In this document: piece by piece, positions 11,167-58,243 of the stretch
Numbering within the stretch: position 1 is the first letter of the stretch
Layout: each line of letters opens with the position of its first letter
From: Eledone cirrhosa
Taxonomy: Eukaryota
Direction: 5' to 3'
Assembly (NCBI GenBank): GCA_964016885.1
Contig: OZ024743.1
Span: 89,900,001-89,964,000, forward strand
DNA length: 64,000 nucleotides
Position numbers and translations under genes: made by a program
The notes under the pieces: generated by a model
Told to the model about the DNA's origin: nothing
Seen by the model: only the letters and a program-made list of their open reading frames with translations
Databases searched by the model: none

Positions 11167-11846
<680 letters not shown>

Positions 11847-13749: not shown

Positions 13750-14698
13750 CCAATTTGCATAGAACGTGAGTCATTGTACGCACCGGTTCAGCGGAAACGA
13801 TAAAAACAAATAACGAAACGAAATTAAATTTCGTTTCGCTTCTAACTCACTTTTGTATGACTGACGCTTAAACAATTAAGTTAAAGTGTACATCTACATA
13901 TGTATACGGAAGTATTAGTATGCATATAAATACACACATGTATACATATGTACATGTACTCAGCTTTTCACTAGACACTTTACAGTGAGTGTCAGCTAGT
14001 CTGTATGTAACCACACAGACGGACCGGGTTTTAGAGTCATACGGGTTTTCAAGGAAACACATTTCCTCTATTCTCCAGAGGGCCAGACAGGAACATTGGA
14101 CTAGTTTCGATGTTATTACATCTCATCAGCAATATTTACCCAAAGCTGAGTACATGTACATATGTATACATGTGTGTATTTATATGCATACTAATACTTC
14201 CGTATACATATGTAGATGTACACTTTAACTTAATTGTTTAAGCGTCAGTCATACAAAAGTGAGTTAGAAGCGAAACGAAATTTAATTTCGTTTCGTTATT
14301 TATTTTTATCGTTTCCGCTGAACCGGTGCGTACAATGACTCACGTTCTATGCAAATTGGTCTACCCACTACTAATTTTCATAGAAAAAGCATATAACGAT
14401 ATGTGCTTTTACAATTCTCCAGAGAAGCCGGAAGATGGGTAAATATTGCTGATGAGATGTAATAACATCGAAACTAGTCCAATGTTCCTGTCTGGCCCTC
14501 TGGAGAATAGAGGAAATGTGTTTCCTTGAAAACCCGTATGACTCTAAAACCCGGTCCGTCTGTGTGGTTACATACAGACTAGCTGACACTCACTGTAAAG
14601 TGTCTAGTGAAAAGCTGAGTACATGTACATATGTATACATGTGTGTATTTATATGCATACTAATACTTCCGTATACATATGTAGATGTACACTTTAAC

Positions 14699-14705
<7 letters not shown>
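13750..14705. mobile_element. HHR element family K: inverted copy + 1.2 tandem copies of a ~469-nt unit
   Basis: 13750-13967 is the reverse complement of 14142-14359, and 13880-14141 is the reverse complement of 14437-14705. AAAGCTGAGTACATG recurs at 14142 and 14611. Confidence 0.9.
14442..14486 (+). ncRNA. Type I hammerhead ribozyme (mirror copy 14092-14136 on -)
   Basis: AATATTG-CTGATGA-GATGT aata ACATC-GAAA-CTAG-TC-CAATGTT: canonical core, GUC cleavage triplet, palindromic stem III. Confidence 0.9.
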
Positions 14706-16988: not shown

Positions 16989-17080
<92 letters not shown>

Positions 17081-17082
<2 letters not shown>

Positions 17083-17507
17083 GAGGTGAGTTTTATTGTA
17101 GTACAATAAAGCAATGCAGATATCGGATAAGAAGCACTCTACAGTTTGTAGGACTGGAGTATACATAATATATAAGATCAAAAGATGGTTAAAAGAGTTC
17201 CATGTATTTTATTATGCGCATTTCAAAAACAAATATCACCATGCAATAATATTTGTGTTTTCATCAGATAAAATAGGAAGACATGATATGAAGGTTAAAA
17301 AACACTTGTGAATAGTGCCGTTTTAAATCAACATATCATATGTTGATTTAAAACTGCACTATTCACCAGTGTTTTTTTACCTTCATATCATGTCTTCCTA
17401 TTTTATCTGATGAAAACACAAATATTATTGCATGGTGATATTTGTTTTTGAAATGCGCATAATAAAATACATGGAACTCTTTTAACCATCTTTTGATCTT
17501 ATATATT

Positions 17508-17510
<3 letters not shown>
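17081..17510. mobile_element. Fold-back HHR element family A
   Basis: Arms centred at about 17336. HHRs at 17205-17275 (-) and 17399-17469 (+): TATTTTAT-CTGATGA-aaacacAAATATTATTGCATGGTGATATTTGttttt-GAAA-TGCGCA-TA-ATAAAATA. Confidence 0.9.
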
Positions 17511-24904: not shown

Positions 24905-27900
24905 TTCCTTATATACAATACATATGTATACGTTATATAGCATATATGTGTATAGGTTATATAGCATATATGTGTATAGGTTATATAGCATACATATGTA
25001 TAGGTTATATAGCATATATGTGTATACGTTATATAGAATATATATGTATAGGTTATATAGCATATATATGTATAGGTTATATAGCATATATATGTATACG
25101 TTATATAGAATATATATGTATACGTTATATAGCATATATGTGTATAGGTTATATAGCATATATGTGTATACGTTATATAGCATATATGTGTATACGTTAT
25201 ATAGCATATATATGTATAGGTTATATAGCATATATATGTATAGGTTATATAGCATATATATGTATAGGTTATATAGAATATATGTGTATAGGTTATATAG
25301 CATATATATGTATGGGTTATATAGCATATATATGTATAGGTTATATAGCATATATATGTATAGGTTATATAGAATATATATGTATAGGTTATATAGCATA
25401 TATGTGTATAGGTTATATAGCATATATGTGTATACGTTATATAGCATATATGTGTATAGTTTATATAGCATATATGTGTATAGGTTATATAGCATATATA
25501 TGTATAGGTTATATAGCATATATATGTATAGGTTATATAGCATATATATGTATAGGTTATATAGCATATATATGTATAGGTTATATAGAATATATGTGTA
25601 TAGGTTATATAGCATATATATGTATACGTTATATAACATATATGTGTATAGGTTATATAGCATATATGTGTATACGTTATATAGCATATATATGTATAGG
25701 TTATATAGCATATATATGTATAGTTTATATAGCATATATATGTATAGGTTATATAGCATATATATGTATAGGTTATATAGCATATATATGTATAGGTTAT
25801 ATAGCATATATATGTATAGGTTATATAGAATATATGTGTATAGGTTATATAGCATATATATGTATACGTTATATAGCATATATGTGTATAGGTTATATAG
25901 CATATATGTGTATACGTTATATAGCATATATATGTATAGGTTATATAGCATATATATGTATAGTTTATATAGCATATATATGTATAGGTTATATAGCATA
26001 TATATGTATAGGTTATATAGCATATATATGTATAGGTTATATAGCATATATATGTATAGGTTATATAGAATATATATGTATACGTTATATAGCATATATA
26101 TGTATAGGTTATATAGAATATATATGTATAGGTTATATAGAATATATATGTATACGTTATATAGCATATATATGTATACGTTATATAGCATATATGTGTA
26201 TAGGTTATATAGAATATATATGTATAGGTTATATAGAATATATATGTATACGTTATATAGCATATATATGTATGGGTTATATAGAATATATATGTATAGG
26301 TTATATAGCATATATATGTATGGGTTATATAGAATATATGTGTATAGGTTATATAGCATATATATGTATAGGTTATATAGCATATATATGTATACGTTAT
26401 ATAGCATATATATGTATAGGTTATATAGCATATATGTGTATAGGTTATATAGCATATATATGTATACGTTATATAGCATATATATGTATAGTTTATATAG
26501 CATATATGTGTATAGGTTATATAGCATATATATGTATGGGTTATATAGAATATATATGTATAGGTTATATAGAATATATATGTATACGTTATATAGCATA
26601 TATGTGTATACGTTATATAGCATATATATGTATAGGTTATATAGAATATATATGTATAGGTTATATAGCATATATATGTATAGGTTATATAGAATATATA
26701 TGTATAGGTTATATAGCATAAATATGTATAGGTTATATAGAATATATATGTATAGGTTATATAGCATATATATGTATAGGTTATATAGCATATATATGTA
26801 TAGGTTATATAGAATATATATGTATACGTTATATAGCATATATATGTATACGTTATATAGCATATATATGTATACGTTATATAGCATATATGTGTATAGG
26901 TTATATAGCATATATATGTATAGGTTATATAGCATATATATGTATAGGTTATATAGCATATATATGTATAGGTTATATAGCATATATATGTATAGGTTAT
27001 ATAGAATATATATATATAGGTTATATAGAATATATATGTATACGTTATATAGCATATATGTGTATACGTTATATAGCATATATGTGTATAGGTTATATAG
27101 AATATATATGTATAGGTTATATAGCATATATATGTATAGATTATATAGCATATATATGTATACGTTATATAGAATATATGTGTATAGGTTATATAGCATA
27201 TATATGTATAGGTTATATAGCATATATATGTATAGGTTATATAGAATATATATGTATACGTTATATAGCATATATATGTATAGGTTATATAGAATATATA
27301 TGTATAGGTTATATAGAATATATATGTATACGTTATATAGCATATATATGTATACGTTATATAGCATATATGTGTATAGGTTATATAGAATATATATGTA
27401 TAGGTTATATAGAATATATATGTATACGTTATATAGCATATATATGTATGGGTTATATAGAATATATATGTATAGGTTATATAGCATATATATGTATGGG
27501 TTATATAGAATATATGTGTATAGGTTATATAGCATATATATGTATAGGTTATATAGCATATATATGTATACGTTATATAGCATATATATGTATAGGTTAT
27601 ATAGCATATATGTGTATAGGTTATATAGCATATATATGTATACGTTATATAGCATATATATGTATAGTTTATATAGCATATATGTGTATAGGTTATATAG
27701 CATATATATGTATGGGTTATATAGAATATATATGTATAGGTTATATAGAATATATATGTATACGTTATATAGCATATATGTGTATACGTTATATAGCATA
27801 TATATGTATAGGTTATATAGAATATATATGTATAGGTTATATAGCATATATATGTATAGGTTATATAGAATATATATGTATAGGTTATATAGCATATATA

Positions 27901-29580
27901 TGTATAGGTTATATAGAATATATATGTATAGGTTATATAGAATATATATGTATACGTTATATAGCATATATATGTATACGTTATATAGCATATATATGTA
28001 TACGTTATATAGCATATATGTGTATAGGTTATATAGCATATATATGTATAGGTTATATAGCATATATATGTATAGGTTATATAGCATATATATGTATAGG
28101 TTATATAGCATATATATGTATAGGTTATATAGAATATATATATATAGGTTATATAGAATATATATGTATACGTTATATAGCATATATGTGTATACGTTAT
28201 ATAGCATATATGTGTATAGGTTATATAGAATATATATGTATAGGTTATATAGCATATATATGTATAGATTATATAGGATATATATGTATACGTTATATAG
28301 AATATATGTGTATAGGTTATATAGCATATATATGTATACGTTATATAGAATATATATGTATACGTTATATAGCATATATATGTATAGGTTATATAGCATA
28401 TATGTGTATACGTTATATAGCATATATATGTATAGGTTATATAGCATATATATGTATACGTTATATAGAATATATATGTATACGTTATATAGCATATATA
28501 TGTATACGTTATATAGAATATATATGTATACGTTATATAGCATATATATGTATAGGTTATATAGCATATATGTGTATACGTTATATAGCATATATATGTA
28601 TAGGTTATATAGCATATATGTGTATAGGTTATATAGCATATATGTGTATACGTTATATAGAATATATATGTATAGGTTATATAGAATATATATGTATAGG
28701 TTATATAGCATATATATGTATAGGTTATATAGCATATATGTGTATAGGTTATATAGCATATATATGTATAGGTTATATAGCATATATGTGTATAGGTTAT
28801 ATAGAATATATATGTATACGTTATATAGAATATATATGTATACGTTATATAGCATATATGTGTATAGGTTATATAGCATATATGTGTATACGTTATATAG
28901 CATATATATGTATAGGTTATATAGCATATATATGTATAGGTTATATAGCATATATATGTATAGGTTATATAGCATATATATGTATAGGTTATATAGAATA
29001 TATATGTATAGGTTATATAGCATATATATGTATAGGTTATATAGCATATATATGTATAGGTTATATAGCATATATATGTATACGTTATATAGCATATATA
29101 TGTATAGGTTATATAGAATATATATGTATAGTTTATATAGCATATATATGTATAGGTTATATAGCATATATATGTATACGTTATATAGAATATATATAAG
29201 GGCGGTTGATTTGGCAGTATCGGTAGAGAGTCGGACGCCATGCTTTCTAGCATAGTTACGCCCCTTTACGGTCTGAGTTCAAATCCCATCGAGGTTCACT
29301 TTGCCTTTCATCTTTAAGGGGTCGATAAAATAAAGTACCAGTACTCTTACTGGTATAATTGCTGGCCTTGTGCCAAAAGTAGAAACAGTTATATAGAATA
29401 TATGTATAGGTTATATAGAATATATATGTATACGTTATATAGAATATATATGTATACGTTATATAGAATATATGTATAGGTTATATAGAATATATATGTA
29501 TACGTTATATAGCATATATGTGTATAGGTTATATAGAATATATATGTATATGTTATATAGAATATATGTATAGGTTATAT
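24905..29580. repeat. 24-bp satellite array (TATATAGCATATATATGTATAGGT), ~185 monomers, interrupted by a SINE
   Basis: Directly visible; source of the 1400-aa artefactual ORFs. Confidence 0.97.
29199..29387 (+). mobile_element. Full-length SINE S1 inserted into the satellite
   Basis: GGGCGGTTGATTTGGCAGTATCGGTAGAG...GAGTTCAAATCCC...GGCCTTGTGCCAAAAGTAGAAAC. Confidence 0.9.
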
Positions 29581-32526: not shown

Positions 32527-32570
<44 letters not shown>

Positions 32571-32575
<5 letters not shown>

Positions 32576-32989
32576 AACAAAAGATGGTTAAAGGAGTTCC
32601 ATGTATTTTATTATACGCATTTCAAAAACAAATATCATCATGCAATAATATTTGTGTTTTCATCAGATAAAACAGGAGGACATGATATGAAGGCTAAAAG
32701 ACACTTGTGGATAGTTCAGTTTTAAATCAACATATGTTGATTTAAAACTGAACTGTCCACAAGTGTTTTTTAGCCTTCATATCATGTCCTCCTGTTTTAT
32801 CTGATGAAAACACAAATATTATTGCATGATGATATTTGTTTTTGAAATGCGTATAATAAAATACATGGAACTCCTTTAACCATCTTTTGTTCTTATATAT
32901 TATGTATACTCCAATCCCACAAACTGTAGAGTGCTTCTTATCCGATATCTGCATTGCTTTATTGTACTACAATAAAACTCACCTCCTAC
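32571..32989. mobile_element. Fold-back HHR element family A (second copy)
   Basis: Palindrome centred on AAATCAACATATGTTGATTT (~32733). HHRs at about 32604-32674 (-) and 32793-32863 (+). Flanked by (TA)n. Confidence 0.9.
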
Positions 32990-33205
32990 ATATATATATA
33001 TATATATATAAAGAAACCGGCTAGTACTTAGTACAATCCCTGATGCTTTCACCTCCTCCAGGGGATTCCTTCCGTGCCAGACAATACAGAATCGTCAGTA
33101 ATGTATTATGTTACTTCTGTTACTCGGAAATTGAGACTCCCCGTATACCACTATATACAGTGACATAAACAACTATGAAAATCTAACTTACACCTTCAAA
33201 TTACA

Positions 33206-35804: not shown

Positions 35805-38800
35805 GAACCACACTATGATGGTCTATGTGGAGTGACACCTTACTATCTTTGGTAGACACCACACTATCATGGTCTATGTGGAGTGACACCTTACTATCAT
35901 TGGTAGACAACATACTAGCGTGGTCTATGTGGAGTGACACCTCACTATCATTGGTAGACACCACTCTATAATTGGTACACACCACACTATCATGGTCTAT
36001 GTGGAGTGACACCTTACTGTCATTGGTAGACACCACACTATCATGGTCTATGTGGAGTGACACCTTACTATCATTGGTAGACACCACACTATCATGGTCT
36101 ATGTGGAGTGACATTTTACTATCATTGATTGACACCACACTATCATGGTCTATGTGGAGTGACATTTTACTATCATTGATTGACACCACACTATTATGGT
36201 CTATCTGGAGTGAAACCTTACTATCTTTGGTAGACACCACACTATCTTGGTCTATGTGGAGTGACACCTTACTATCTTTGGTAGACACCACACTATCATG
36301 GTCTATGTGGAGTGACACCTTACTATATTTGGTAGACACCACACTATCATGGTCTATGTGGAGTGACACCTTACTATCTTTGCTAGACACCACACTATCT
36401 TGGTCTATGTGGAGTGAAACCTTACTATCTTTGGTAGACACCACACTATCATGGTCTATGTGGAGTGACACCTTACTATATTTGGTAGACACCACACTAT
36501 CGTGGTCTATGTGGAGTGACACCTTACTATCTTTGCTAGACACCACACTATCATGGTCTATGTGGAGTGACACCTTACTATCTTTGGTAGACACCACACT
36601 ATCATGGTCTATGTGGAGTGACACCTTACTATCATTGGTAGACATCACACTATCTTGGTCTATGTGGAGTGACACCTTACTATATTTGGTAGACACCACA
36701 CTATCATGGTCTATGTGGAGTGACACCTTACTATCTTTGGTAGACACCACACTATCTTCGTCTATGTGGAGTGACACCTTACTATCTTTGCTAGACACCA
36801 CACTATCTTGGTCTATGTGGAGTGACACCTTACTATATTTGGTAGACACCACACTATCATGGTCTATGTGGAGTGACACCTTACTATCTTTGGTAGACAC
36901 CACACTATCATGGTCTATGTGGAGTGACACCTTACTATCTTTGGTAGACACCACACTATCTTGGTCTATGTGGAGTGACACCTTACTATATTTGGTAGAC
37001 ACCACACTATCATGGTCTATGTGGAGTGACACCTTACTATCTTTGGTAGACACCACACTATCATGGTCTATGTGGAGTGACACCTTACTATCTTTGGTAG
37101 ACACCACACTATCTTGGTCTATGTGGAGTGACACCTTGCTATATTTGGTAGACACCACACTATCATGGTCTATGTGGAGTGACACCTTACTATCTTTGGT
37201 AGACACCACACTATCTTGGTCTATGTGGAGTGACACCTTACTATATTTGGTAGACACCACACTATCATGGTCTATGTGGAGTGACACCTTACTATCTTTG
37301 GTAGACACCACACTATCATGGTCTATGTGGAGTGACACCTTACTATCTTTGGTAGACACCACACTATCTTGGTCTATGTGGAGTGACACCTTACTATATT
37401 TGGTAGACACCACACTATCATGGTCTATGTGGAGTGACACCTTACTATCTTTGGTAGACACCACACTATCATGGTCTATGTGGAGTGACACCTTACTATC
37501 TTTGGTAGACACCACACTATCATGGTCTATGTGGAGTGACACCTTACTATCATTGGTAGACATCACACTATCATGGTCTATGTGGAGTGACACCTTACTA
37601 TCATTGGTAGACATCACACTATCATGGTCTATGCGGAGTGACACCTTACTATCTTTGGTAGACACCCCACTATCATAGTCTATGTGAAGTGACACCTTAC
37701 TATGTTTGGTAGACACCACACTATCATGGTCTATGTAGAGTGACACCTTACTATCATTGGTAGACACCACACTATCATAGTCTATGTGGAGTGACACCTT
37801 ACTATCATTGGTAGACACCACACTATCATGGTCTATGTGGAGTGACACCTTACTATATTTGGTAGACACCACACTATCATGGTCTATGTGGAGTGACACC
37901 TTACTATCTTTGGTAGACACCACACTATCATGGTCTATGTGAAGTGACACCTTACTATGTTTGGTAGACACCACACTATCATCGTCTATGTGGAGTGACA
38001 CCTTACTATCGTTGGTAGACAGCACACTATCATGGTCTATGTGGAGTGACACCTTACTATATTTGGTAGACACCACACTATCATGGTCTATGTGGAGTGA
38101 CACCTTACTATCTTTGGTAGACACCACACTATCATGGTCTATGTGGAGTGACACCTTACTATCTTTGGTAGACACCACACTATCATGGTCTATGTGGAGT
38201 GACACCTTACTATCTTTGGTAGACACCACACTATCATGGTCTATGTGGAGTGACACCTTACTATCTTTGGTAGACACCACACTATCTTGGTCTATGTGGA
38301 GTGACACCTTACTATCTTTGGTAGACACCACACTATCATGGTCTATGTGGAGTGACACCTTACTATCGTTGGTAGACAGCACACTATCATGGTCTATGTG
38401 AAGTGACACCTTACTATCTTTGGTAGACACCACACTATCATGGTCTATGTGGAGTGACACGTTACTATCATTGATAGACACCACACTATCATCGTCTATG
38501 TGGAGTGACACCTTACTGTCTTTGGTAGACACCACACTATCATGATCTATGTGGAGTGACACCTTACTATCATTGGTAGACACCCCACTATCATGGTCTA
38601 TGTGAAGTGACACCTTACTATCTTTGGTAGACACCACACTATCATGGTCTATGTGGAGTGACACCTTACTATCATTGGTAGACACCACACTATCATGATC
38701 TATGTGGAATGACACCTTACTATCTTTGGTAGACACCACACTATCATGGTCTATGTGGAGTGACACCTTACTATCTATGGTAGACACCACACTATCATGG

Positions 38801-39200
38801 TCTATGTGGAGTGACACCTTACTATCTTTGGTAGACACCACACTATCATGGTCTATGTGGAGTGACACGTTACTATCATTGGTAGACACCACACTATCAT
38901 GGTCTATGTGGAGTGACACCTTACTATCATTGGTAGACACCACACTATCATGGTCTATGTGGAGTGACACGTTACTATCATTGGTAGACACCACACTATC
39001 ATGGTCTATGTGGAGTGACACCTTACTATCATTGGTAGACACCACACTATCATGGTCTATGTGGAGTGACACGTTACTATCATTGGTAGACACCACACTA
39101 TCATGGTCTATGTGGAGTGACACCTTACTATCATTGGTAGACATCACACTATCATTGGTAGACACCACACTATCATGGTGTATGTGGAGTGACACTACAA
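35805..39200. repeat. 51-bp minisatellite, ~66 units (GACACCACACTATCATGGTCTATGTGGAGTGACACCTTACTATCWTTGGTA)
   Basis: Directly visible. The minus frame is open from 39195 to 35773, encoding (SLHIDHDSVVSTKDSKV)n. Confidence 0.95.
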
Positions 39201-46551: not shown

Positions 46552-46575
46552 GTGCCTTTTCTCTTCACCACCAAC

Positions 46576-49500
46576 ATGGCTATGCTAAGAGTAGGCTGTT
46601 TAAATGCGCGTGGCCTGGGCTCAACTTGGAAGCAAGCAATGCTTCTAAATGACCTCAGGTCACAACGTATAGATGTGATGGTTATTTGCGAGGCCCGGAT
46701 CAGCAACGTGCGACAGCTGGCCCCCACCTTTGATGACTTTGAGATGCACGCATCTCTCTGTCAGCCCGGAGGTGGGGGTGGAGTTGTCGTTCTGCTGCAA
46801 AAACATCTGGGTCTCGCAACACAGATGGTACATTTGGACCCGCAGGGTCGACTAGTGGTTCTGGACCTTGGCAGTGGTAAAGGCGGAGCGTTTAGGTTGG
46901 TAGCCGCCTACGGCCCTTTCGGGTCAATGCGGCCGGACTTCTTCCATCGTCTGGAGACTTTTCTAGGGAGGTCCCGCTCCTTGCTATTAGTGGAGGACTG
47001 GAATGGTATCCTAGATGCACGCTGGGACTACGTAGGGGCCTGTCCCGATAGAGAGGGGTGTAATAGCCTCAAAGGGTTAATCGGTCGATTTGACCTGGCC
47101 GATAGATATCGACTAGATTTTCCGACTGCGCCAACCTGGACTTGGGCAAATCGTAGCGGAACGTCTAGGTCGTACCTAGATAGGTTCTTAGTTAGAATTA
47201 AGGATAAGGACTTTTTAAGTTGTCCAAAAATGCGCATGGTTGGCTATTCAGACCACAAATTAGTGACCTGCATGGTCAACCTTGACAGAACTCATAGACA
47301 GGGACCCGGTTACTGGAAGCTCAACTTGTCCTTACCGGCAAGTAAGGCTTACAGGAACCGGATTAGCACTTTAGTTAAGGAGCGGTTGACGGGCGCCATC
47401 GTCAACAGCAGGTGGTGGGGATCTCTCAAAAGAGAGATTAGAGTAGTCTCTATAGAATTTAGTAAGGAGTTAGCCTCCAATAGAAATAGGAAGGAAAGGG
47501 AGTTGGTAGATAGTGTAGAAGAGGCAATTAGAAGCGGCGACGTGGCCAGCGTGCTAGCGTCGAGAACGGCCCTGGGCCAGTTCTTCGACGCGAAACACGA
47601 AGGCTGCATCGTCCGAAGCAAAATACGTGCTCTGGGAAACGAGGGCACCAAAGCTGTTAGCTGGGCCCGCGTGACAGAAGCCAAAAGAGGGAGCAGATCC
47701 ACTATCCGGTCTTTGCGAGACCAGGATGGACGGGTGATCCTTGAACCTAAGCAGATGTGCGAGGCTTTTCAAAAGCACTTTGCCGAATTGTTCGGAAGGG
47801 GCGGGGGGCCGGTTGGGGACGTGGACTTCGGTCCATACCTCGACGGCCTGCCGCGTCTCTCGGACAGGGAGGCGAAGTCCTGCGAGGAGCCGATTTCAGC
47901 CGCTGAGATAGAGGACGTGCTGAGCCAATGCGGCAAACGCAAATCCCCGTGTCTCGATGGTCTTCCATACGAACTATATCTAGCTATGCCGGACTTATTC
48001 CCCGAACTCCTCGAGGCGGTCTACTGCAACTGGCAACAGAACGGGAGAATTCCCTGTGCTGTGACCAAGGGCGTAGTCACGCTAGTGAGGAAGGACGAGG
48101 ACAAGGGGGACGATATAAATAATTTCAGGCCCATAACTCTGCTAAATACAGAGTTACAGATTTTGGCCAAGGTGCTAGCAAAGAGGTTGGCGCTTGTCGT
48201 GGGCAACCTGGTGGGAGATGCGCAGACATGTGCTATCCCGTCCAGGTCCATCCACAATAACCTCCACCTCATGCGATACATCATAGAGAGGGTTGGGAAC
48301 GAACCCAGCTTTGGTGGGGCCCTGATCAACTTGGATCAATCTAAGGCATTCGATAGGGTCGACCATGGTTACCTGGATGCGGTGCTAGCGGCGGCAGGCT
48401 TCGGACCCGTTTTCAGGGGCTGGATCAATGCCATGCACAGCAGCCGCATCTGCTCTAGGGTCAAGGTGAACGGCTACCTCTCGGAGCCGTTCGAAATCGC
48501 GCGGTCCATCCGACAGGGGTGCCCTCTCTCCTCCCTTCTGTATGTAGTGACTCTAGAGTCACTGCTGCGGAAGTTGGAGTTGTTGCAGGGCATCCCGTTG
48601 GAACCGGGATTGCGGAAAGCGGTGTCAGCCTACGCCGATGACGTAACAGTAATGGTGTCGACGGCCTCGGAAATCGGGGCGATCGGCACCTTACTGGAGG
48701 AGTACGAAAGGTTTACAGGGGCTAAGCTGAACCGGGACAAGTCGATCGGTCTGCAACTCGGCACGTGGAGGGGCAGATCGATGCCCTCCGATGGCGTCGT
48801 CGGGCGCTGGACGGAGGGCCCGGTGAAATTGCTCGGGGTCTGGTTTGGACCAGACCTCCAGGTGGAGAAGAACTGGGGTGAGGTGACGAGCAGGGTGTTT
48901 GCACTGACCCAGAAGTGGGCCGAGTGCAAACTGTCCCTGAAAGGTCGGGCGGAGGTGGCGAACACTTATATAGCGTCCGTCATCTACTACCGCCTGACCG
49001 TGGTGCCTTGCCCAAGGGAAACGCTTGCCAAAATGGTGCGCGCACTCTTCCAATTCCTTTGGAAGAAGCGGGCTCCTATGGTGAGGAGATCCATCTGCTG
49101 TCAACACCCTTCGAAAGGAGGGCTGGGGATGCCGTGGCTGATGATACGTAAACACGCATTAAGGCTACGGCACCTTCAGGTATTCCTCTCCGGTCAACCG
49201 GTGTGGGCCCCGTTTGTGAGGCGAGCCTTTCCCAGACTCGTCTCGCTCACCGAGCTGCAATCCTGGGTCAAGCAAAGACCGAGAAAACTGGGCGCCTGGC
49301 ACACCGAGTGTGCCCAGGCGCTCACGGCTCTCTGGCAGGCGGACCCGGCTGTCAGTGGAGAATCCACCTCGTCATTCTATAGAGGGCTGGTGGTTAGCAG
49401 GTGCGACGACGCCCTCGGAGAAGCCCTAGGCATGGAGGAAGACGAACTGGCCAACCTGTTCAGTAGGACATTCAGCCCGGGACCCATGGATAACTTCCAG

Positions 49501-50013
49501 AGGTCCCTGGCCTGGCAATGCTACAGAAGGGCTCTGCTCGTTCGAGAAAAGCTCTACAGACACGGGCGCCCGGGTAGGGACCCATCGAAAAAGGTCTGTC
49601 CCAGATGCGTGTGCGACGAGGAAACCGTTGCACACGCATTGGTACACTGCTCGGGCATTGCCGATCTGTGGGGCTATGTCGAACAACTGCTGTCAAGGGT
49701 GGGACCGATCCGGTTGACCACCGAGTCTATTGTAACGATCAAGCCGCCTCCCCTCTTCAAAAACGAAGGAGAGGCGGTGTTTCCGTGCGTAATAGCCATG
49801 GCGAAAGAGGTTGTATGGTGGACGCGTCTGAAAGGGCTGAGGTCAGACACCTTTCTCTCTGGCCAACAACTGGTCCGTTTCTTCCGATATCATTTCGGAA
49901 GAAGGATCAGGATAGAGAGAGAGGTGCTGCACCCCAGCCGTTTCTATGAAAGATGGGTGAAAGTGGCGAGAATGGCCCGTGTGAATGGGCCTTCACTCTA
50001 CATCAGACTATAG
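46576..50013 (+). CDS. LINE ORF2: apurinic-like endonuclease + reverse transcriptase + C-terminal CCHC
   Basis: APE: LNARGL, ICEAR, EDWN, YLDRF, SDH. RT: FRPITLLN, DQSKAFDRV, RQGCPLS, YADD, GGLG. C-terminal CPRC...AHALVHC. Uninterrupted 1145 codons from the ATG. Confidence 0.93.
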   Translation: MAMLRVGCLNARGLGSTWKQAMLLNDLRSQRIDVMVICEARISNVRQLAPTFDDFEMHASLCQPGGGGGVVVLLQKHLGLATQMVHLDPQGRLVVLDLGSGKGGAFRLVAAYGPFGSMRPDFFHRLETFLGRSRSLLLVEDWNGILDARWDYVGACPDREGCNSLKGLIGRFDLADRYRLDFPTAPTWTWANRSGTSRSYLDRFLVRIKDKDFLSCPKMRMVGYSDHKLVTCMVNLDRTHRQGPGYWKLNLSLPASKAYRNRISTLVKERLTGAIVNSRWWGSLKREIRVVSIEFSKELASNRNRKERELVDSVEEAIRSGDVASVLASRTALGQFFDAKHEGCIVRSKIRALGNEGTKAVSWARVTEAKRGSRSTIRSLRDQDGRVILEPKQMCEAFQKHFAELFGRGGGPVGDVDFGPYLDGLPRLSDREAKSCEEPISAAEIEDVLSQCGKRKSPCLDGLPYELYLAMPDLFPELLEAVYCNWQQNGRIPCAVTKGVVTLVRKDEDKGDDINNFRPITLLNTELQILAKVLAKRLALVVGNLVGDAQTCAIPSRSIHNNLHLMRYIIERVGNEPSFGGALINLDQSKAFDRVDHGYLDAVLAAAGFGPVFRGWINAMHSSRICSRVKVNGYLSEPFEIARSIRQGCPLSSLLYVVTLESLLRKLELLQGIPLEPGLRKAVSAYADDVTVMVSTASEIGAIGTLLEEYERFTGAKLNRDKSIGLQLGTWRGRSMPSDGVVGRWTEGPVKLLGVWFGPDLQVEKNWGEVTSRVFALTQKWAECKLSLKGRAEVANTYIASVIYYRLTVVPCPRETLAKMVRALFQFLWKKRAPMVRRSICCQHPSKGGLGMPWLMIRKHALRLRHLQVFLSGQPVWAPFVRRAFPRLVSLTELQSWVKQRPRKLGAWHTECAQALTALWQADPAVSGESTSSFYRGLVVSRCDDALGEALGMEEDELANLFSRTFSPGPMDNFQRSLAWQCYRRALLVREKLYRHGRPGRDPSKKVCPRCVCDEETVAHALVHCSGIADLWGYVEQLLSRVGPIRLTTESIVTIKPPPLFKNEGEAVFPCVIAMAKEVVWWTRLKGLRSDTFLSGQQLVRFFRYHFGRRIRIEREVLHPSRFYERWVKVARMARVNGPSLYIRL

Positions 50014-51047: not shown

Positions 51048-51103
51048 ATGTGATTCCTGATGATTTCTAAAGAATGAAACAGTTCTAGTCCTGTAGAATC
51101 TCA

Positions 51104-51104
<1 letters not shown>
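51048..51104 (+). ncRNA. Solitary type I hammerhead ribozyme inside (TA)n
   Basis: ATGTGATTC-CTGATGA-tTTCTaaAGAAt-GAAA-CAG ttctagtc CTG-TA-GAATCTCAT; all three stems can pair. Confidence 0.85.
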
Positions 51105-51184
<80 letters not shown>

Positions 51185-52213: not shown

Positions 52214-52267
<54 letters not shown>

Positions 52268-52300
52268 GATATAGATATATATATAGATATATATATAGAT

Positions 52301-53230
52301 ATTGGATTAAATGCTCTGAAATAGCGATATATATGTGAAGATAGACATAGAATATTCGAAAATATTCTGTATGTTTATAATAAACATTTTGAAGACCTAA
52401 TCGCTATAGAATAGAATACGTCACGTATTACAATTAGATTCTCGATAAAAGCAAGGGAAGTAACCTACGCGTTTCATTCTTATTAGAAATCTTCAGGATT
52501 ACATATCCAGTGCTTTTATCGAGAATGACACAGCTAGAGACTTATAGAATACTTAGCTGTGTACATGAACTGGTTTGAAAGAGCGGTTGCCGGTCCGGCA
52601 GAAATTAGAAATTGGATTAAATGCTCTGAAATAGCGATATATATGTGAAGATAGACATAGAATATTCGAAAATATTCTGTATGTTTATAATAAACATTTT
52701 GAAGACCTAATCGCTATAGAATAGAATACGTCACGTATTACAATTAGATTCTCGATAAAAGCAAGGGAAGTAACCTACGCGTTTCATTCTTATTAGAAAT
52801 CTTCAGGATTACATATCCAGTGCTTTTATCGAGAATGACACAGCTAGAGACTTATAGAATACTTAGCTGTGTACATGAACTGGTTTGAAAGAGCGGTTGC
52901 CGGTCCGGCAGAAATTAGAAATTGGATTAAATGCTCTGAAATAGCGATATATATGTGAAGATAGACATAGAATATTCGAAAATATTCTGTATGTTTATAA
53001 TAAACATTTTGAAGACCTAATCGCTATAGAATAGAATACGTCACGTATTACAATTAGATTCTCGATAAAAGCAAGGGAAGTAACCTACGCGTTTCATTCT
53101 TATTAGAAATCTTCAGGATTACATATCCAGTGCTTTTATCGAGAATGACACAGCTAGAGACTTATAGAATACTTAGCTGTGTACATGAACTGGTTTGAAA
53201 GAGCGGTTGCCGGTCCGGCAGAAATTAGAA
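52301..53230 (-). mobile_element. Three head-to-tail copies of a 310-bp HHR unit (non-LTR retrozyme-like concatemer)
   Basis: Units 52301-52610, 52611-52920 and 52921-53230 appear identical. Minus-strand HHRs at 52460-52502, 52770-52812 and 53080-53122: GTAATC-CTGAAGA-tTTCTaataAGAAt-GAAA-CGCG-TA-GGTTAC. Confidence 0.88.
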
Positions 53231-53940
53231 AGCTAAGCATTTAAATATTCTGACATCACCACAGATGAACTTCACATCATTCTCACCGCAAGAAGAACCA
53301 TCTTAGAATTCAACAATGAATACTGGACTAGAGCTGATACTTCCAACAACTTTGATATCACAATGGGTGCTTCCGATTCATCGCAATTGACTGATTTGAT
53401 TGGTAATTTTATTTTGAATTCTTTAAATCGGAAAATTCCTCAACTTCGCGGTGGAATTTATCGTGACGATGGACTTTTTACTATCTTAAATTGCAATTTA
53501 GTTAACCTTAATATTATTAAGAACAATTTACGTGATCTCTTTAAGCAATATAACTTAAAATCGAATTTGATAACAACATCAAACTAGCTAACTTCTTGGA
53601 TATATCCCGTAATCTTGACACTGGCCTATAAAAACAATGAGAATCTAAATTATGTTAATTTTAAATCTAACCACCCTACTAACATTAAAAATGCTATCGT
53701 TAGTAATATTGGAAAAAGAATATCAAACCTATCCTCTAATAAAAATATCTTTGATGCTAACGCCAATTACTATAATAATGCGCCGGTTATCCTGATAAAA
53801 TTAAATACAGTAAAGAAACCAATCCTAGAAGGTCTTACAGTAAAATAATTAATTATGATCATTCCAATAACTTAAATAAAAGACCTAGATACAAAAATAT
53901 AATCTGGTATAATGCTCCTTTTTCTATTTCTATTAATAAT

Positions 53941-54117
53941 AATTGTTTCTACTTTAGGCACAAGGCCAGCAATTACCCAGTACATTACTGGTACTTTATT
54001 TTATCGACCCCGTAAGGATGAAAGGCAAAGTTAACCTCGGCGGGATTTGAACTCAGACTGTAAAGGGACGTAACTATGCTAGAATGCATGGCGTCCAACC
54101 CTCTACCGATACTGCCA
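53941..54117 (-). mobile_element. SINE S1 inserted into the Penelope ORF, with TSD
   Basis: TSD ATTAATAAT at 53932-53940 and 54118-54126. Removing the SINE rejoins WYNAPFSISINNIPK. Confidence 0.9.
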
Positions 54118-56103
54118 ATTAATAATATTCCTAAACTATTATTTAGGGCCTTTGATAAATGCTTCTCTCCTTCACATATCTATAGTAAAATGTTTAACAA
54201 ACATACAATAACATTTTCCTATTCCGCCTCCTCCAATATCTCTAACATTATCTCTAAACACAACAATAAAATATTAAATATTAAATCACATCCTTCCAAC
54301 ACTGAGCGTCATAATAATAGCAGTAGTACTCCCGACGTCATTGTTAACTCTAAGCTAGATTCTTCAAATTCAAATACGACGTCAAACGTAACTTCGTTGA
54401 ATGTTCATAATACCAATCTAAATCAGGAAACTATTATTCCTATCGTAAATAACTTCTCCAATCCAATTCCTCCTAGGTCACTTGTTAATAACTGTGTTAA
54501 TTTCTCTAATCGCAATTGTAATTGCCCTGTTAGAACTAAATGTCCTCTCAATAACCATTGTCTTTATAAAAACTTAGTCTATGAATGTAAGGTTATAACT
54601 GATACCAATTCCTTTACCTATTTCGGTTCCACTTCCACCTCCTTCAAAGCTAGATTTTATAATCACAATTCGTCTTTTAAATACCAACTTAAAAGAACTA
54701 ACACGGCACTCTCAGAACTCATATGGTCCTTGAAAGACAAAAATATTAACTATAACATCTCTTGGAGGAAAGTTTGTTCTGCCTCTCCCTACTTGAATGC
54801 CTCCCTATCCAAAACATGTAATCTTTGCCTATCTGAGAAATTTACCATTATATCTAAATTAAATTCTATAATAAATAGACGCACTGATTTATTTTCACTC
54901 TGCTTGCATAAATTCCACAGAACATTCCATAAAGTATACAGCTAATATCTAATACCTTACTAGTTTAAAATCCTTTTCCTCAAAGGCTTATATATTTTTT
55001 TAAAATATACCCATCTTTCTACCTTATTTCAATATTATTTATTATATATTATATAATACAAGTTACTCATTCTATATCATTCCTCTTTATCACTTTCCTT
55101 TCTTCCTCTTTTCTTTTTTCTTTTTAATTTCTAACCTCTAATCTGTACTTTTTCTTCCTAACTACTTCTTAATTCTTATTATTACTCACCACAACATTAT
55201 CCATTCTTCCATCTTTCTTCATATCATTGCCCATAAAAATTATTATTATCTTTTTAATACATTATAGTATTACCTTTAATAGTCCTTCGTAAACATAAAT
55301 ATTTTTTTTACGTTAGATTTTTCTTCCTTAAATTCCTTATCTCTTCCTTTCATGCTCGTTTGACTTTTACATATTACAATACATAAACACAAACTTAAAC
55401 CCTAACTAATTTCTTTTAATATATTATATTATTACCATTAGAAAATATTTCGTAAACATATATATTTTTTGATGTTAGATATTTTCTTCCTTAAACATTC
55501 TTTTCTTCTTTGCTTTCTGCGCTCATTTTTAAACAAACTATTTACGTACATATATTACGCACACATATTACATTACATAAAAACAAACTTAAACACTAAC
55601 TAATTCCTCTAAATTCATAACTCATCCATTCTTCTACTTCTTTTCACATTATATCCTTAATAACATTAATATTTTTATTTTAATAATACATATTAATAAT
55701 TTCTTTTCCTCGCGCATATTATTAAACCCTTCAATATACAAACCTTAATTTAATATTATTCTTAACCCCTTTTTTCTCTTCATCAACTTTTAATTTCAAA
55801 TTCTTTTAAATTATCTATTATCTTCCAACGGCTTTTTAACTTCTCTCTGTGAGACAATATATATTTTTTCTCAGTTGTAAAGGCTATCTCTCTCTATCAC
55901 CCATCTCTCCTCCTCTCTCATCCTTCCTTCTTATACTGCTCCCCCACCATTCTTTACTCTCATCTCCTCCCCTTCCTTACCTTTAGCACCCCCCCCCCCT
56001 CACTTTTTCCAAATATCACACATCAATCTTAAATTATTTTTCATATGTTGATTTAAAACTTCACTATTCACAAGTGTTTTTTAAGCTTCATATCATGTAT
56101 CCC

Positions 56104-56174
56104 TATTTTATCTGATGAACACGCAGATATCATCTCATGATGATATTTGTTTTTGAAATGCGCATAATAAAATA
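56104..56174 (+). ncRNA. Type I hammerhead ribozyme (family A) at the Penelope 3' end
   Basis: TATTTTAT-CTGATGA-...GCAGATATCATCTCATGATGATATTTGT...-GAAA-TGCGCA-TA-ATAAAATA. Confidence 0.85.
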
Positions 56175-56211
56175 CTTCGAACTCTTTTAACCATATTTTG
56201 ATCTTATATTA

Positions 56212-57039: not shown

Positions 57040-57214
57040 ATTAATTCAAAATATTAATAAATATAGACATTCAACGTAATCAAAATATATTTTATTATAT
57101 ATATTTCGGAGGTACTGTGCTGTTTTTTCAGTACGTCCTCATCAGATAAAATATATAAATTGATGTGTGACATACTTCAACTGTGCTGATGGTTCAATTC
57201 CAGTCTTGGCAGTG

Positions 57215-57215
<1 letters not shown>
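57040..57215 (-). mobile_element. Family B single arm with HHR (57088-57153, -)
   Basis: TATTTTAT-CTGATGA-GGACGTACTG...CAGTACCTCC-GAAA-TATATA-TA-ATAAAATA; stems conserved and loop changed relative to 11511. Confidence 0.8.
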
Positions 57216-57239
<24 letters not shown>

Positions 57240-57799: not shown

Positions 57800-58243
57800 C
57801 CCTTAAATGCATAGACGGTTGTCCCCCTTGCTTCTGCTGGACATCACCAGAGGTGATGCTACGGCTTCCTAAAATCATATTTCTTTGGAGATATGAAATT
57901 CTTATACATATTGTATAAAGCTATGCTTGAAGCGAAATCTTATTTCTTTTCTATTATAAGTTGAGCCAACTTATGCAGCTTCATATGCAAATGAGATTAA
58001 TCAGCTCATTTACACAGACGAGAAAACTATATATTCTCGGCTGTCTTCTAATACAACAGTCGCAAGCGGTGGGAGGGATCGTCCTGACGAAGGTCAGTTA
58101 AGCCTGAAATGCATAGATGGTTGTCGCCCTTGCTTCTGCTGGATATCACCAGAGGGCGTTGCCCCCCCCCCCCCCCCGGTCCTCGGTGTTTCCATAGCTA
58201 TGGCTTCTTAAAACCGTATCTCTTTGGAGATACGAAATTGTTA
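57799..58243 (+). mobile_element. Family F second copy (1.4 tandem units) with canonical HHR at 58078-58121
   Basis: ATCGTC-CTGACGA-AGGtcagttaagCCT-GAAA-TGCA-TA-GATGGT; TGCATAGAYGGTTGTC occurs at about 57808 and 58110. Confidence 0.85.

Follow-up and report, generated by a model that had tools for sequence, protein, structure and literature searches.

The enzyme that spreads animal retrozymes is an open question. In the cited passages of the two closest studies, Penelope-like elements (PLEs) were named as a strong candidate mobiliser (PMC7229834), and later work backed their role through co-occurrence and pLTR homology and left the mechanism open (bioRxiv 10.64898/2026.07.22.740005). For PLEs themselves, the passages cited here describe copies that are inverted and 5'-truncated, a tail that often sits at one end, and insertion into (TA)n (PMC8557442), and an inverted truncated copy with an optional tail (PMC3846280). 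The cited part of PMC11167929 identifies the tail as the stretch between two internal start sites of reverse transcription; the PLE enzyme nicks and extends both strands, with extension of both strands seen in vitro, and the PAc protein is a predicted dimer. Whereas the cited retrozyme passages infer PLE mobilisation from co-occurrence and pLTR homology, the evidence presented here is insertion anatomy, read from DNA alone. About ninety loci were found to bear a PLE insertion signature, and this is evidence of a more direct kind. Inverted two-arm insertions, two fixed ends and PLE-coding junctions are not described in the passages of PMC7229834 and bioRxiv 10.64898/2026.07.22.740005 used here, and a literature search that took in few subscription papers and left aside bioRxiv supplements gave no description of a two-arm anatomy in retrozymes. 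The kind of element is already known as a retrozyme; what is added is anatomical evidence, gathered across the family, for mobilisation by PLEs, together with a pairing rule that can be counted.

The window analysed was a stretch of 64,000 nucleotides from Eledone cirrhosa, and all positions refer to it unless a locus is named. Three identical units of 310 bp were located at 52302-53231, with one further base at 52301. The lag-310 self-comparison showed 0 mismatches from 52301 to 52921 and the tandem-repeat scan gave a period of 310 with 3.0 copies, which bore out the exact triple unit of an earlier sequence-only reading. This retrozyme arm (52301..53231, 3 x 310 bp + 1) carries its ribozymes on the minus strand, its outer end is the fixed 'long' site of the family and its inner end is truncated. 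As that reading had also stated, the array starts at (TA)n: its left end adjoins a degenerate (TA)n/(GA)n microsatellite at 52214..52300. This run was likely the target and primer of the array, and (TA)n bounds nearly all family loci externally. An internal (AT)4 at 52327..52334 (minus strand) is the fixed 'short' end, as mapped across family loci, and the 25-33 nt that separate it from the long end are the counterpart of the PLE tail. The array had been said to end directly at Penelope RT sequence, but a 5-nt filler at 53232..53236 (plus strand) sits between array and PLE. These bases were taken as filler and not as PLE sequence because 19 copies of the PLE family have different bases there. 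Together with one flanking base on each side, the filler is a 7-nt inverted copy of 53172-53178, which is consistent with end joining and possibly reflects a snap-back templated insertion during it. In other samples, depth at the filler was 0 in the contigs of run X1 and about 0 in three RAD runs. This was a weak test, and the RAD runs were unable to probe the junction because most RAD molecules stop at 53226, just short of it. At 53214, 69 reads of run X22 pass from the unit into a young PLE family (that of locus L178, described below), a passage not listed for X21 or X23; these reads possibly represent a polymorphic chimera or a library artefact.

One predicted type I hammerhead per unit was found on the minus strand by our own pattern scan (52460..52502, 52770..52812 and 53080..53122; 3/3 units), in agreement with the sequence-only reading. 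The core of the motif reads CUGAAGA, helix II has a U-U at its base, and helix III is minimal and palindromic. An Rfam scan of the window at gathering thresholds called no hammerhead and gave one tRNA-like match elsewhere. Cleavage is predicted after GUA, between 52466 and 52465 in unit 1. In each unit the hammerhead domain is clamped by a 16-bp inverted repeat on the minus strand (52438..52526 in unit 1, with arms 52438-52453 and 52511-52526), and this clamp and the small hairpins were in the sequence as claimed. The unit-length RNA was highly self-paired and more stable than 100/100 shuffles (z = -4.75). The unit is non-coding, with a longest stop-free stretch of 59 codons, and has no LTR structure. 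Tandem units of a length within about 150-450 bp, a type I hammerhead in each, dispersed multi-copy occurrence and absence of coding capacity were all found, and by these sequence criteria the element is an animal non-LTR retrozyme; the tandem hammerhead units, the dispersed non-coding family and the self-paired RNA support the identity first proposed. The unit resembles the animal non-LTR retrozymes of the cited passages (PMC7229834; bioRxiv 10.64898/2026.07.22.740005) in its tandem 150-450 bp units, type I hammerheads, low G+C, lack of coding sequence and highly self-paired RNA, and its hammerhead is like that of axolotl in the weak helix III and the U-U pair at the base of helix II. Other hammerheads were seen near the array. 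A lone one of about 55 bp lies between two (TA)n runs at 51050-51107, with a helix II that resembles that of the unit, and an inverted pair of the same kind was found at L093. A further type I pattern was given by the scan at 58077-58122 on the plus strand.

The genome searched comprised about 3.0 Gb. Of 332 candidate places for the unit, 40 were scored, and these yielded 253 matches; identity was 98-100% among the 150 matches listed, and arrays reached about 28 units. The exact pattern of (TA)n plus the long end of the unit was present at 108 junctions genome-wide, and the reversed control at 0. In the 69 arms of at least 600 bp, the median difference from the commonest letters was 0.16%. The 310-bp unit is a young, non-autonomous family in its own right and not part of the joined PLE.

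Insertion anatomy was scored in two sets. The first consisted of 39 other loci, all that could be delimited from the 150 listed matches of the unit search; the second consisted of 78 further stretches drawn from 100 listed of the 108 long-end junctions and therefore chosen for the long end. The first set contained 26 loci with two inverted arms and both outer ends visible, 3 that were two-armed or cut off, and 10 one-armed loci. The second contained 65 stretches with a long and a short end, 2 with two long ends, 1 unclassified and 10 one-armed; three of these last ten duplicate one event. Three tiny second arms, at L159, L187 and L212, were read by eye. An inverted 5'-truncated second arm was thus present at 29/39 first-set loci and 68/78 second-set stretches. 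The outer ends fell in (TA)n at two fixed sites, 'long' at phase 303-310 and 'short' at phase 26-35, the latter being the unit's own (AT)4. Among loci with both ends classified, 91/93 had one long and one short end (26/26 in the first set and 65/67 in the second, where only the end of the partner arm is tested, the set having been picked for the long end). The flanks, looked at for target-site duplication, were (TA)n on both sides of family loci. Inner junctions lay at scattered phases and mostly showed overlaps of 1-8 nt or short fillers. Arm lengths correlated within loci (rho 0.30, p 0.017, 62 loci). Synthesis of both arms in lock-step was rejected, with 5/62 loci within 30 nt and 5.6 given by permutation. 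The pattern of one long and one short end was also seen in PLE end pairs within the window, at 17080-17510 and 32560-32990. The PLE-type end pieces of the window are mostly inverted pairs between (TA)n runs, and three pairs are clearly long plus short. Short hammerhead-bearing end pieces of this type, from several families, lie at 11298-11717, 13950-14700, 17080-17510, 32560-32990 and 57040-57230. In a 317-bp sister family, our own pattern classified the ends of too few loci for a count.

Two-armed, tailed insertions in (TA)n are the signature of PLEs, and therefore Penelope enzymes likely copy the family. The inverted arms, two fixed ends and (TA)n targets, seen family-wide, support PLE machinery as the likely mobiliser, as had been supposed. 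As in the EN+ PLEs of the cited passages (PMC8557442; PMC3846280; PMC11167929), the family has inverted arms with a tail at one end, inserts into AT-rich or (TA)n DNA, starts at two internal sites and shows microhomology where the 5' ends meet; the tail of EN+ PLEs is optional and 30-40 bp, and that of the unit family 25-33 nt. In contrast to those elements, the unit is without coding sequence, and its arms are built of repeated 310-nt units. The cited PLE passages state that the tail is often at one end, whereas the long/short pairing (91/93) and the haplotypes shared between arms were counted here. The self-priming model, as given in the cited part of PMC3846280, on its own leaves the two fixed outer ends unexplained.

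The predicted ribozyme cut corresponds to phase 164/165, and neither fixed outer end falls there. The cleavage site was passed by 152/201 arms, and twice by 76. Run-off at the hammerhead cut was not seen, with 1 stop at phases 163-166 observed and 2.6 expected in the 201 arms. Since arms run through the ribozyme cut, the template is either circular or an uncut multimer. Arm stops were in excess, by a post hoc count, at phases 150-154 (window 52451-52455; 13/201 with 3.4 expected), at the top of the 16-bp clamp and about 11 nt downstream of the predicted cut. These stops possibly mark a pause at the hammerhead domain or the ends of cleaved monomers after trimming.

A variant fixed in one arm was also fixed in the partner arm at 7/7 testable loci (89 analysed). 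With 4 single-unit cases added, rare variants were common to both arms in 11/11 loci, with 0 discordant. Arm-shared haplotypes and correlated arm lengths point to one RNA per event, and both arms of a locus were likely copied from one RNA molecule, although gene conversion from arm to arm could be an alternative source of the shared variants. A fixed variant was present in 13/67 arms with at least 3 passes, the window array among them. Its three units share a base present in 4/361 sampled unit passes, the result expected if one circle or a homogeneous donor was copied. This variant was at first considered strictly private, which was rejected, as one more assembly unit and one X1 contig carry it. 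At L034 the same deletion and substitution occur in the third unit of both arms, at L039 three variants are shared between arms with an offset of one unit, and several long arrays repeat with a period of 2-5 units. Such unit-specific variants count against a monomer-only model, and multimeric templates would give them. The rolling reverse transcription round a 310-nt circle proposed in the earlier reading was upheld as repeated passage through the unit, but not as strict passage round a monomeric circle. No ADAR-type editing signature was found, with T>C 33 and A>G 32 among 307 substitutions. With a family this young and short, the rules of PLE insertion become countable: a long and a short end, one haplotype, and no run-off at the ribozyme cut.

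A PLE enzyme likely primes twice on a single circular or multimeric RNA. By analogy with known retrozymes, arrays would be transcribed and hammerheads would cut out 310-nt monomers that may be circularised. The PLE endonuclease would nick both strands of (TA)n, the target observed. The two DNA ends would then prime at fixed internal sites 25-33 nt apart, where the arms are seen to end; these sites lie downstream of the cleavage site by about 135 and 165 nt. Both cDNAs would likely be made off one RNA, each over 0.1 to over 20 units, with strand displacement. Finally, the truncated ends are joined head to head, as the junctions show, mostly via overlaps of 1-8 nt or short fillers.

L1 twin priming also uses two primers on one RNA and gives an inverted head-to-head junction with microhomology; its second site pairs with the target, and its two cDNAs cover different parts of a linear RNA. 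In the model given here, the unit family shares with it the two primers on one RNA, a second site that pairs with the target, the head-to-head inversion and the microhomology. The starts in the unit family, however, are 25-33 nt apart and the cDNAs overlap over whole units, and such overlap needs strand displacement or re-use of the template. The family is also like non-autonomous Chlamys PLEs such as MRC1, which are non-coding derivatives occurring in multicopy head-to-tail form in the cited part of PMC8557442. Those elements belong to green algae, are mostly without hammerheads and have 3' ends that resemble their autonomous partners, whereas no autonomous partner of the unit family was found among the fetched loci.

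A module of about 155 nt spanning both fixed ends (52564..52721, minus strand) was 70-83% alike in sister repeat families. The 317-bp sister family has this module but a different hammerhead, and further relatives share the module too. The module is a candidate enzyme-recognition region, and its 155 nt would suit the existing in vitro PLE assay. In the fetched loci, 0/116 diverged module matches were downstream of a PLE endonuclease, where an autonomous partner was sought, and the single same-strand PLE neighbour among the 116 was the junction at L083. There, the coding part of an element from the Hydra family joined in the window runs into about two sister-retrozyme units that end short in (TA)n (L083:6400-7150), and this junction is a candidate for a true template switch. 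No homology of the unit to the pLTR of an autonomous partner was found with the joined Hydra family or within the fetched loci. A 317-bp sister arm is joined inverted to a Neptune-like PLE at L057:9003-10000 and L135. Another hammerhead family, tandem with a length of about 519 bp, was found at L052:3560-4080 and L244-L250; its hammerhead is minimal, its insertions are two-armed, and it has 2955 candidates. A young PLE family at L178:495-1950 and L216-L234 shows 0.1-0.7% private change, frames of up to 833 codons and a 62-nt tail. It has 1229 candidate places and is joined to the unit at L048 and L178. By its age this young PLE family is a candidate helper, and it has just short words in common with the tail of the unit.

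The element joined to the array is a 5'-truncated and frameshifted PLE at 53237..56210 on the plus strand, which ends at the short end of its own family in (TA)n. Its content is, in order, RT fragments, a linker, a GIY-YIG-type endonuclease to 54945 and a 3' UTR. Its own type I hammerhead at 56104..56174 (plus strand) is unlike the unit hammerhead except in the catalytic core, and comparison of the unit with this 3' region gave no match, as had been noted from the sequence. A dispersed SINE-like repeat of about 190 bp, which we take to resemble octopus SINEs, is inserted in the PLE arm at 53933..54120. This SINE-like repeat lies at the identical place in Hydra copies of several subfamilies (53933-54120; L121-L132), and this site is possibly an insertion hot spot. 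A Pfam search of the PLE fragments gave no family above the cut-off. Read by eye, the arm has a CxCX5C linker, no CCHH cysteine pair, a hammerhead and a (TA)n target, and a DKT motif is present in a longer copy of its family. It fits the Hydra clade by comparison of motifs with the cited part of PMC8557442: the shared features are the C-terminal endonuclease, the CxCX5C linker without CCHH, the CxxC and CxH motifs, the canonical hammerhead, the (TA)n target and the DKT in the longer copy. Differences from the clade as described there are that the arm is truncated, frameshifted and SINE-interrupted, that its tail is about 90 nt, and that the RWK motif reads RWI in the copy of the family examined. 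The unit as a pLTR or 5' part of this Penelope, the case that would have spoken against the sequence-only reading, was excluded. In 19 Hydra copies the RT sequence carries on across the position of the array junction, and the 2.3-kb upstream part of a longer copy gave a best match to the unit of 18 nt (E 0.05). The longest copy has its own 3' UTR repeat upstream, which is without match to the unit.

The joined Hydra arm looks older than the array. Among about 30 copies it had 14 private substitutions in 1670 bp and 2 private deletions, a count that overstates age if a closer donor was missed. Its nearest copies among those sampled were 2.0% and 2.8% away, and no near-identical donor was found among the 40 scored of 2592 candidates. 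The array showed 0 unit-specific and 1 shared change in 931 bp, and the age gap was significant (Fisher p 0.003, or 0.015 counting the shared variant). The SINE-like repeat was dropped as a date for the Hydra arm, as about 20 mixed-subfamily copies have it and the 20 nearest copies lack it. Lone arms with a foreign partner were compared across the family. Eight were joined in inverted orientation (the window, L047, L048, L052, L053, L170, L178 and the L191-193 group) and 1 in direct orientation (L040), a bias with p 0.02, and no TA was left at the junction; the other ten lone arms join (TA)n or other flank. The partners belong to at least 5 other repeat families and include a second Hydra-like family, a young CxxC-linker/CCHH PLE, a Neptune-like 3' UTR and the 519-bp hammerhead repeat. 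Since lone arms join several unrelated families, the partner does not name the helper. The L178 partner arm has 1.0% private change, its nearest copy is 1.3% away and the ends are long/long. The nearest copy of the L052 partner arm is at 98% and the ends are short/short. The L053 partner is as young as the array, its nearest copy scoring 9 bits below the self-match over 597 bp.

We lean, at somewhat better than an even chance, towards a young retrozyme arm, likely PLE-copied into (TA)n, whose inner end was likely joined into an older resident Hydra-clade element. The short-end arm is absent at the window locus, and the long-end arm would have been joined via the 5-nt filler into the RT region of the older PLE, where it probably took the place of the inverted arm belonging to that element; the old palindromic insertion would perhaps have broken at its centre. 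Such secondary joining is favoured by the age gap, and the L178 and L052 partners are likewise without close donors and break the end rule. Against it stands the 8:1 inverted bias, which plain deletion into old neighbours does not predict, so that an extra step is needed. That bias is the main point for co-insertion, in which a PLE enzyme, predicted to be a dimer, would prime retrozyme RNA at one nick and Hydra RNA at the other and the cDNAs would be joined. The geometry is that of a normal two-arm insertion, with one end long, the other short and (TA)n on both outer sides, the L053 partner is young, and the PAc protein, a predicted dimer, extends both strands in the cited part of PMC11167929. 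Co-insertion is nevertheless doubtful. The Hydra RNA would have had to come from a decayed copy that carries the SINE, and the candidates scored included no close donor. Where both arms are of the unit family, they have the same haplotype in 11/11 loci, which indicates one RNA per event, and the foreign pairs at L178 (long/long) and L052 (short/short) break the rule. The ends at the window locus are complementary, the array long and the Hydra arm short. This was rejected as proof of one event, as this Hydra family mostly ends short (17/26 RT-bearing copies, by eye). We regard as similarly tentative the general form of this idea, in which a dimeric PLE enzyme primes both (TA)n ends at two fixed points of one circle, goes round it twice over and occasionally takes a second RNA, which would make the locus a hetero-armed insertion. 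If that were true, one step would explain inverted, one-end-tailed PLE insertions, and the locus would be a fossil of rolling-circle reverse transcription in an animal.

The sequence-only reading had instead proposed a template switch, with one enzyme rolling three times round the 310-nt circle and then moving onto the RNA of a helper PLE. Three identical units with a shared rare base and the same-orientation junction of this Hydra family with a sister retrozyme at L083 are in its favour. Switching between two sense RNAs would give the same orientation, but the window junction is inverted, a geometry of two joined cDNA 5' ends that is normal PLE inversion and so not one enzyme switching between sense RNAs. 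The Hydra family has no sequence in common with the unit and a tail of about 90 nt as against 25-33 nt. With a Hydra arm that looks older, no near-identical donor among those scored and partners elsewhere from at least 5 other families, a template switch is improbable, and the proposed physical link of a retrozyme to its helper was not supported, the joined PLE sharing no sequence with the unit. The least probable account, to which we give very little weight, is that an older single unit grew in place by tandem duplication, or that the threefold length or the junction is an assembly artefact. Exactly 3.0 copies are unusual, with 2/201 arms ending at phase 310, a monomer with one change in 310 bp would fit the age of the Hydra arm, local duplication is allowed for by the higher-order periodic variants of L048, L058, L061/62 and L158, and the junction bases are at zero depth in the X1 contigs. 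However, multi-unit arms with a fixed variant are common (the 13/67 with at least 3 passes), often across both arms, other arms end at arbitrary phases, and the outer end lies at the site that is fixed in the family. Fillers like this one occur at other junctions. X1 is perhaps another individual, and zero depth in such contigs proves nothing.

Other repeats were present in the window. A 1153-codon frame at 46552-50013 matched endonuclease, RT and zf-RVT and belongs to an intact-looking LINE. Two tandem arrays were found, one of a 24-bp unit in 179 copies at 24909-29197 and one of a 51-bp unit in 62 copies at 35972-39155.
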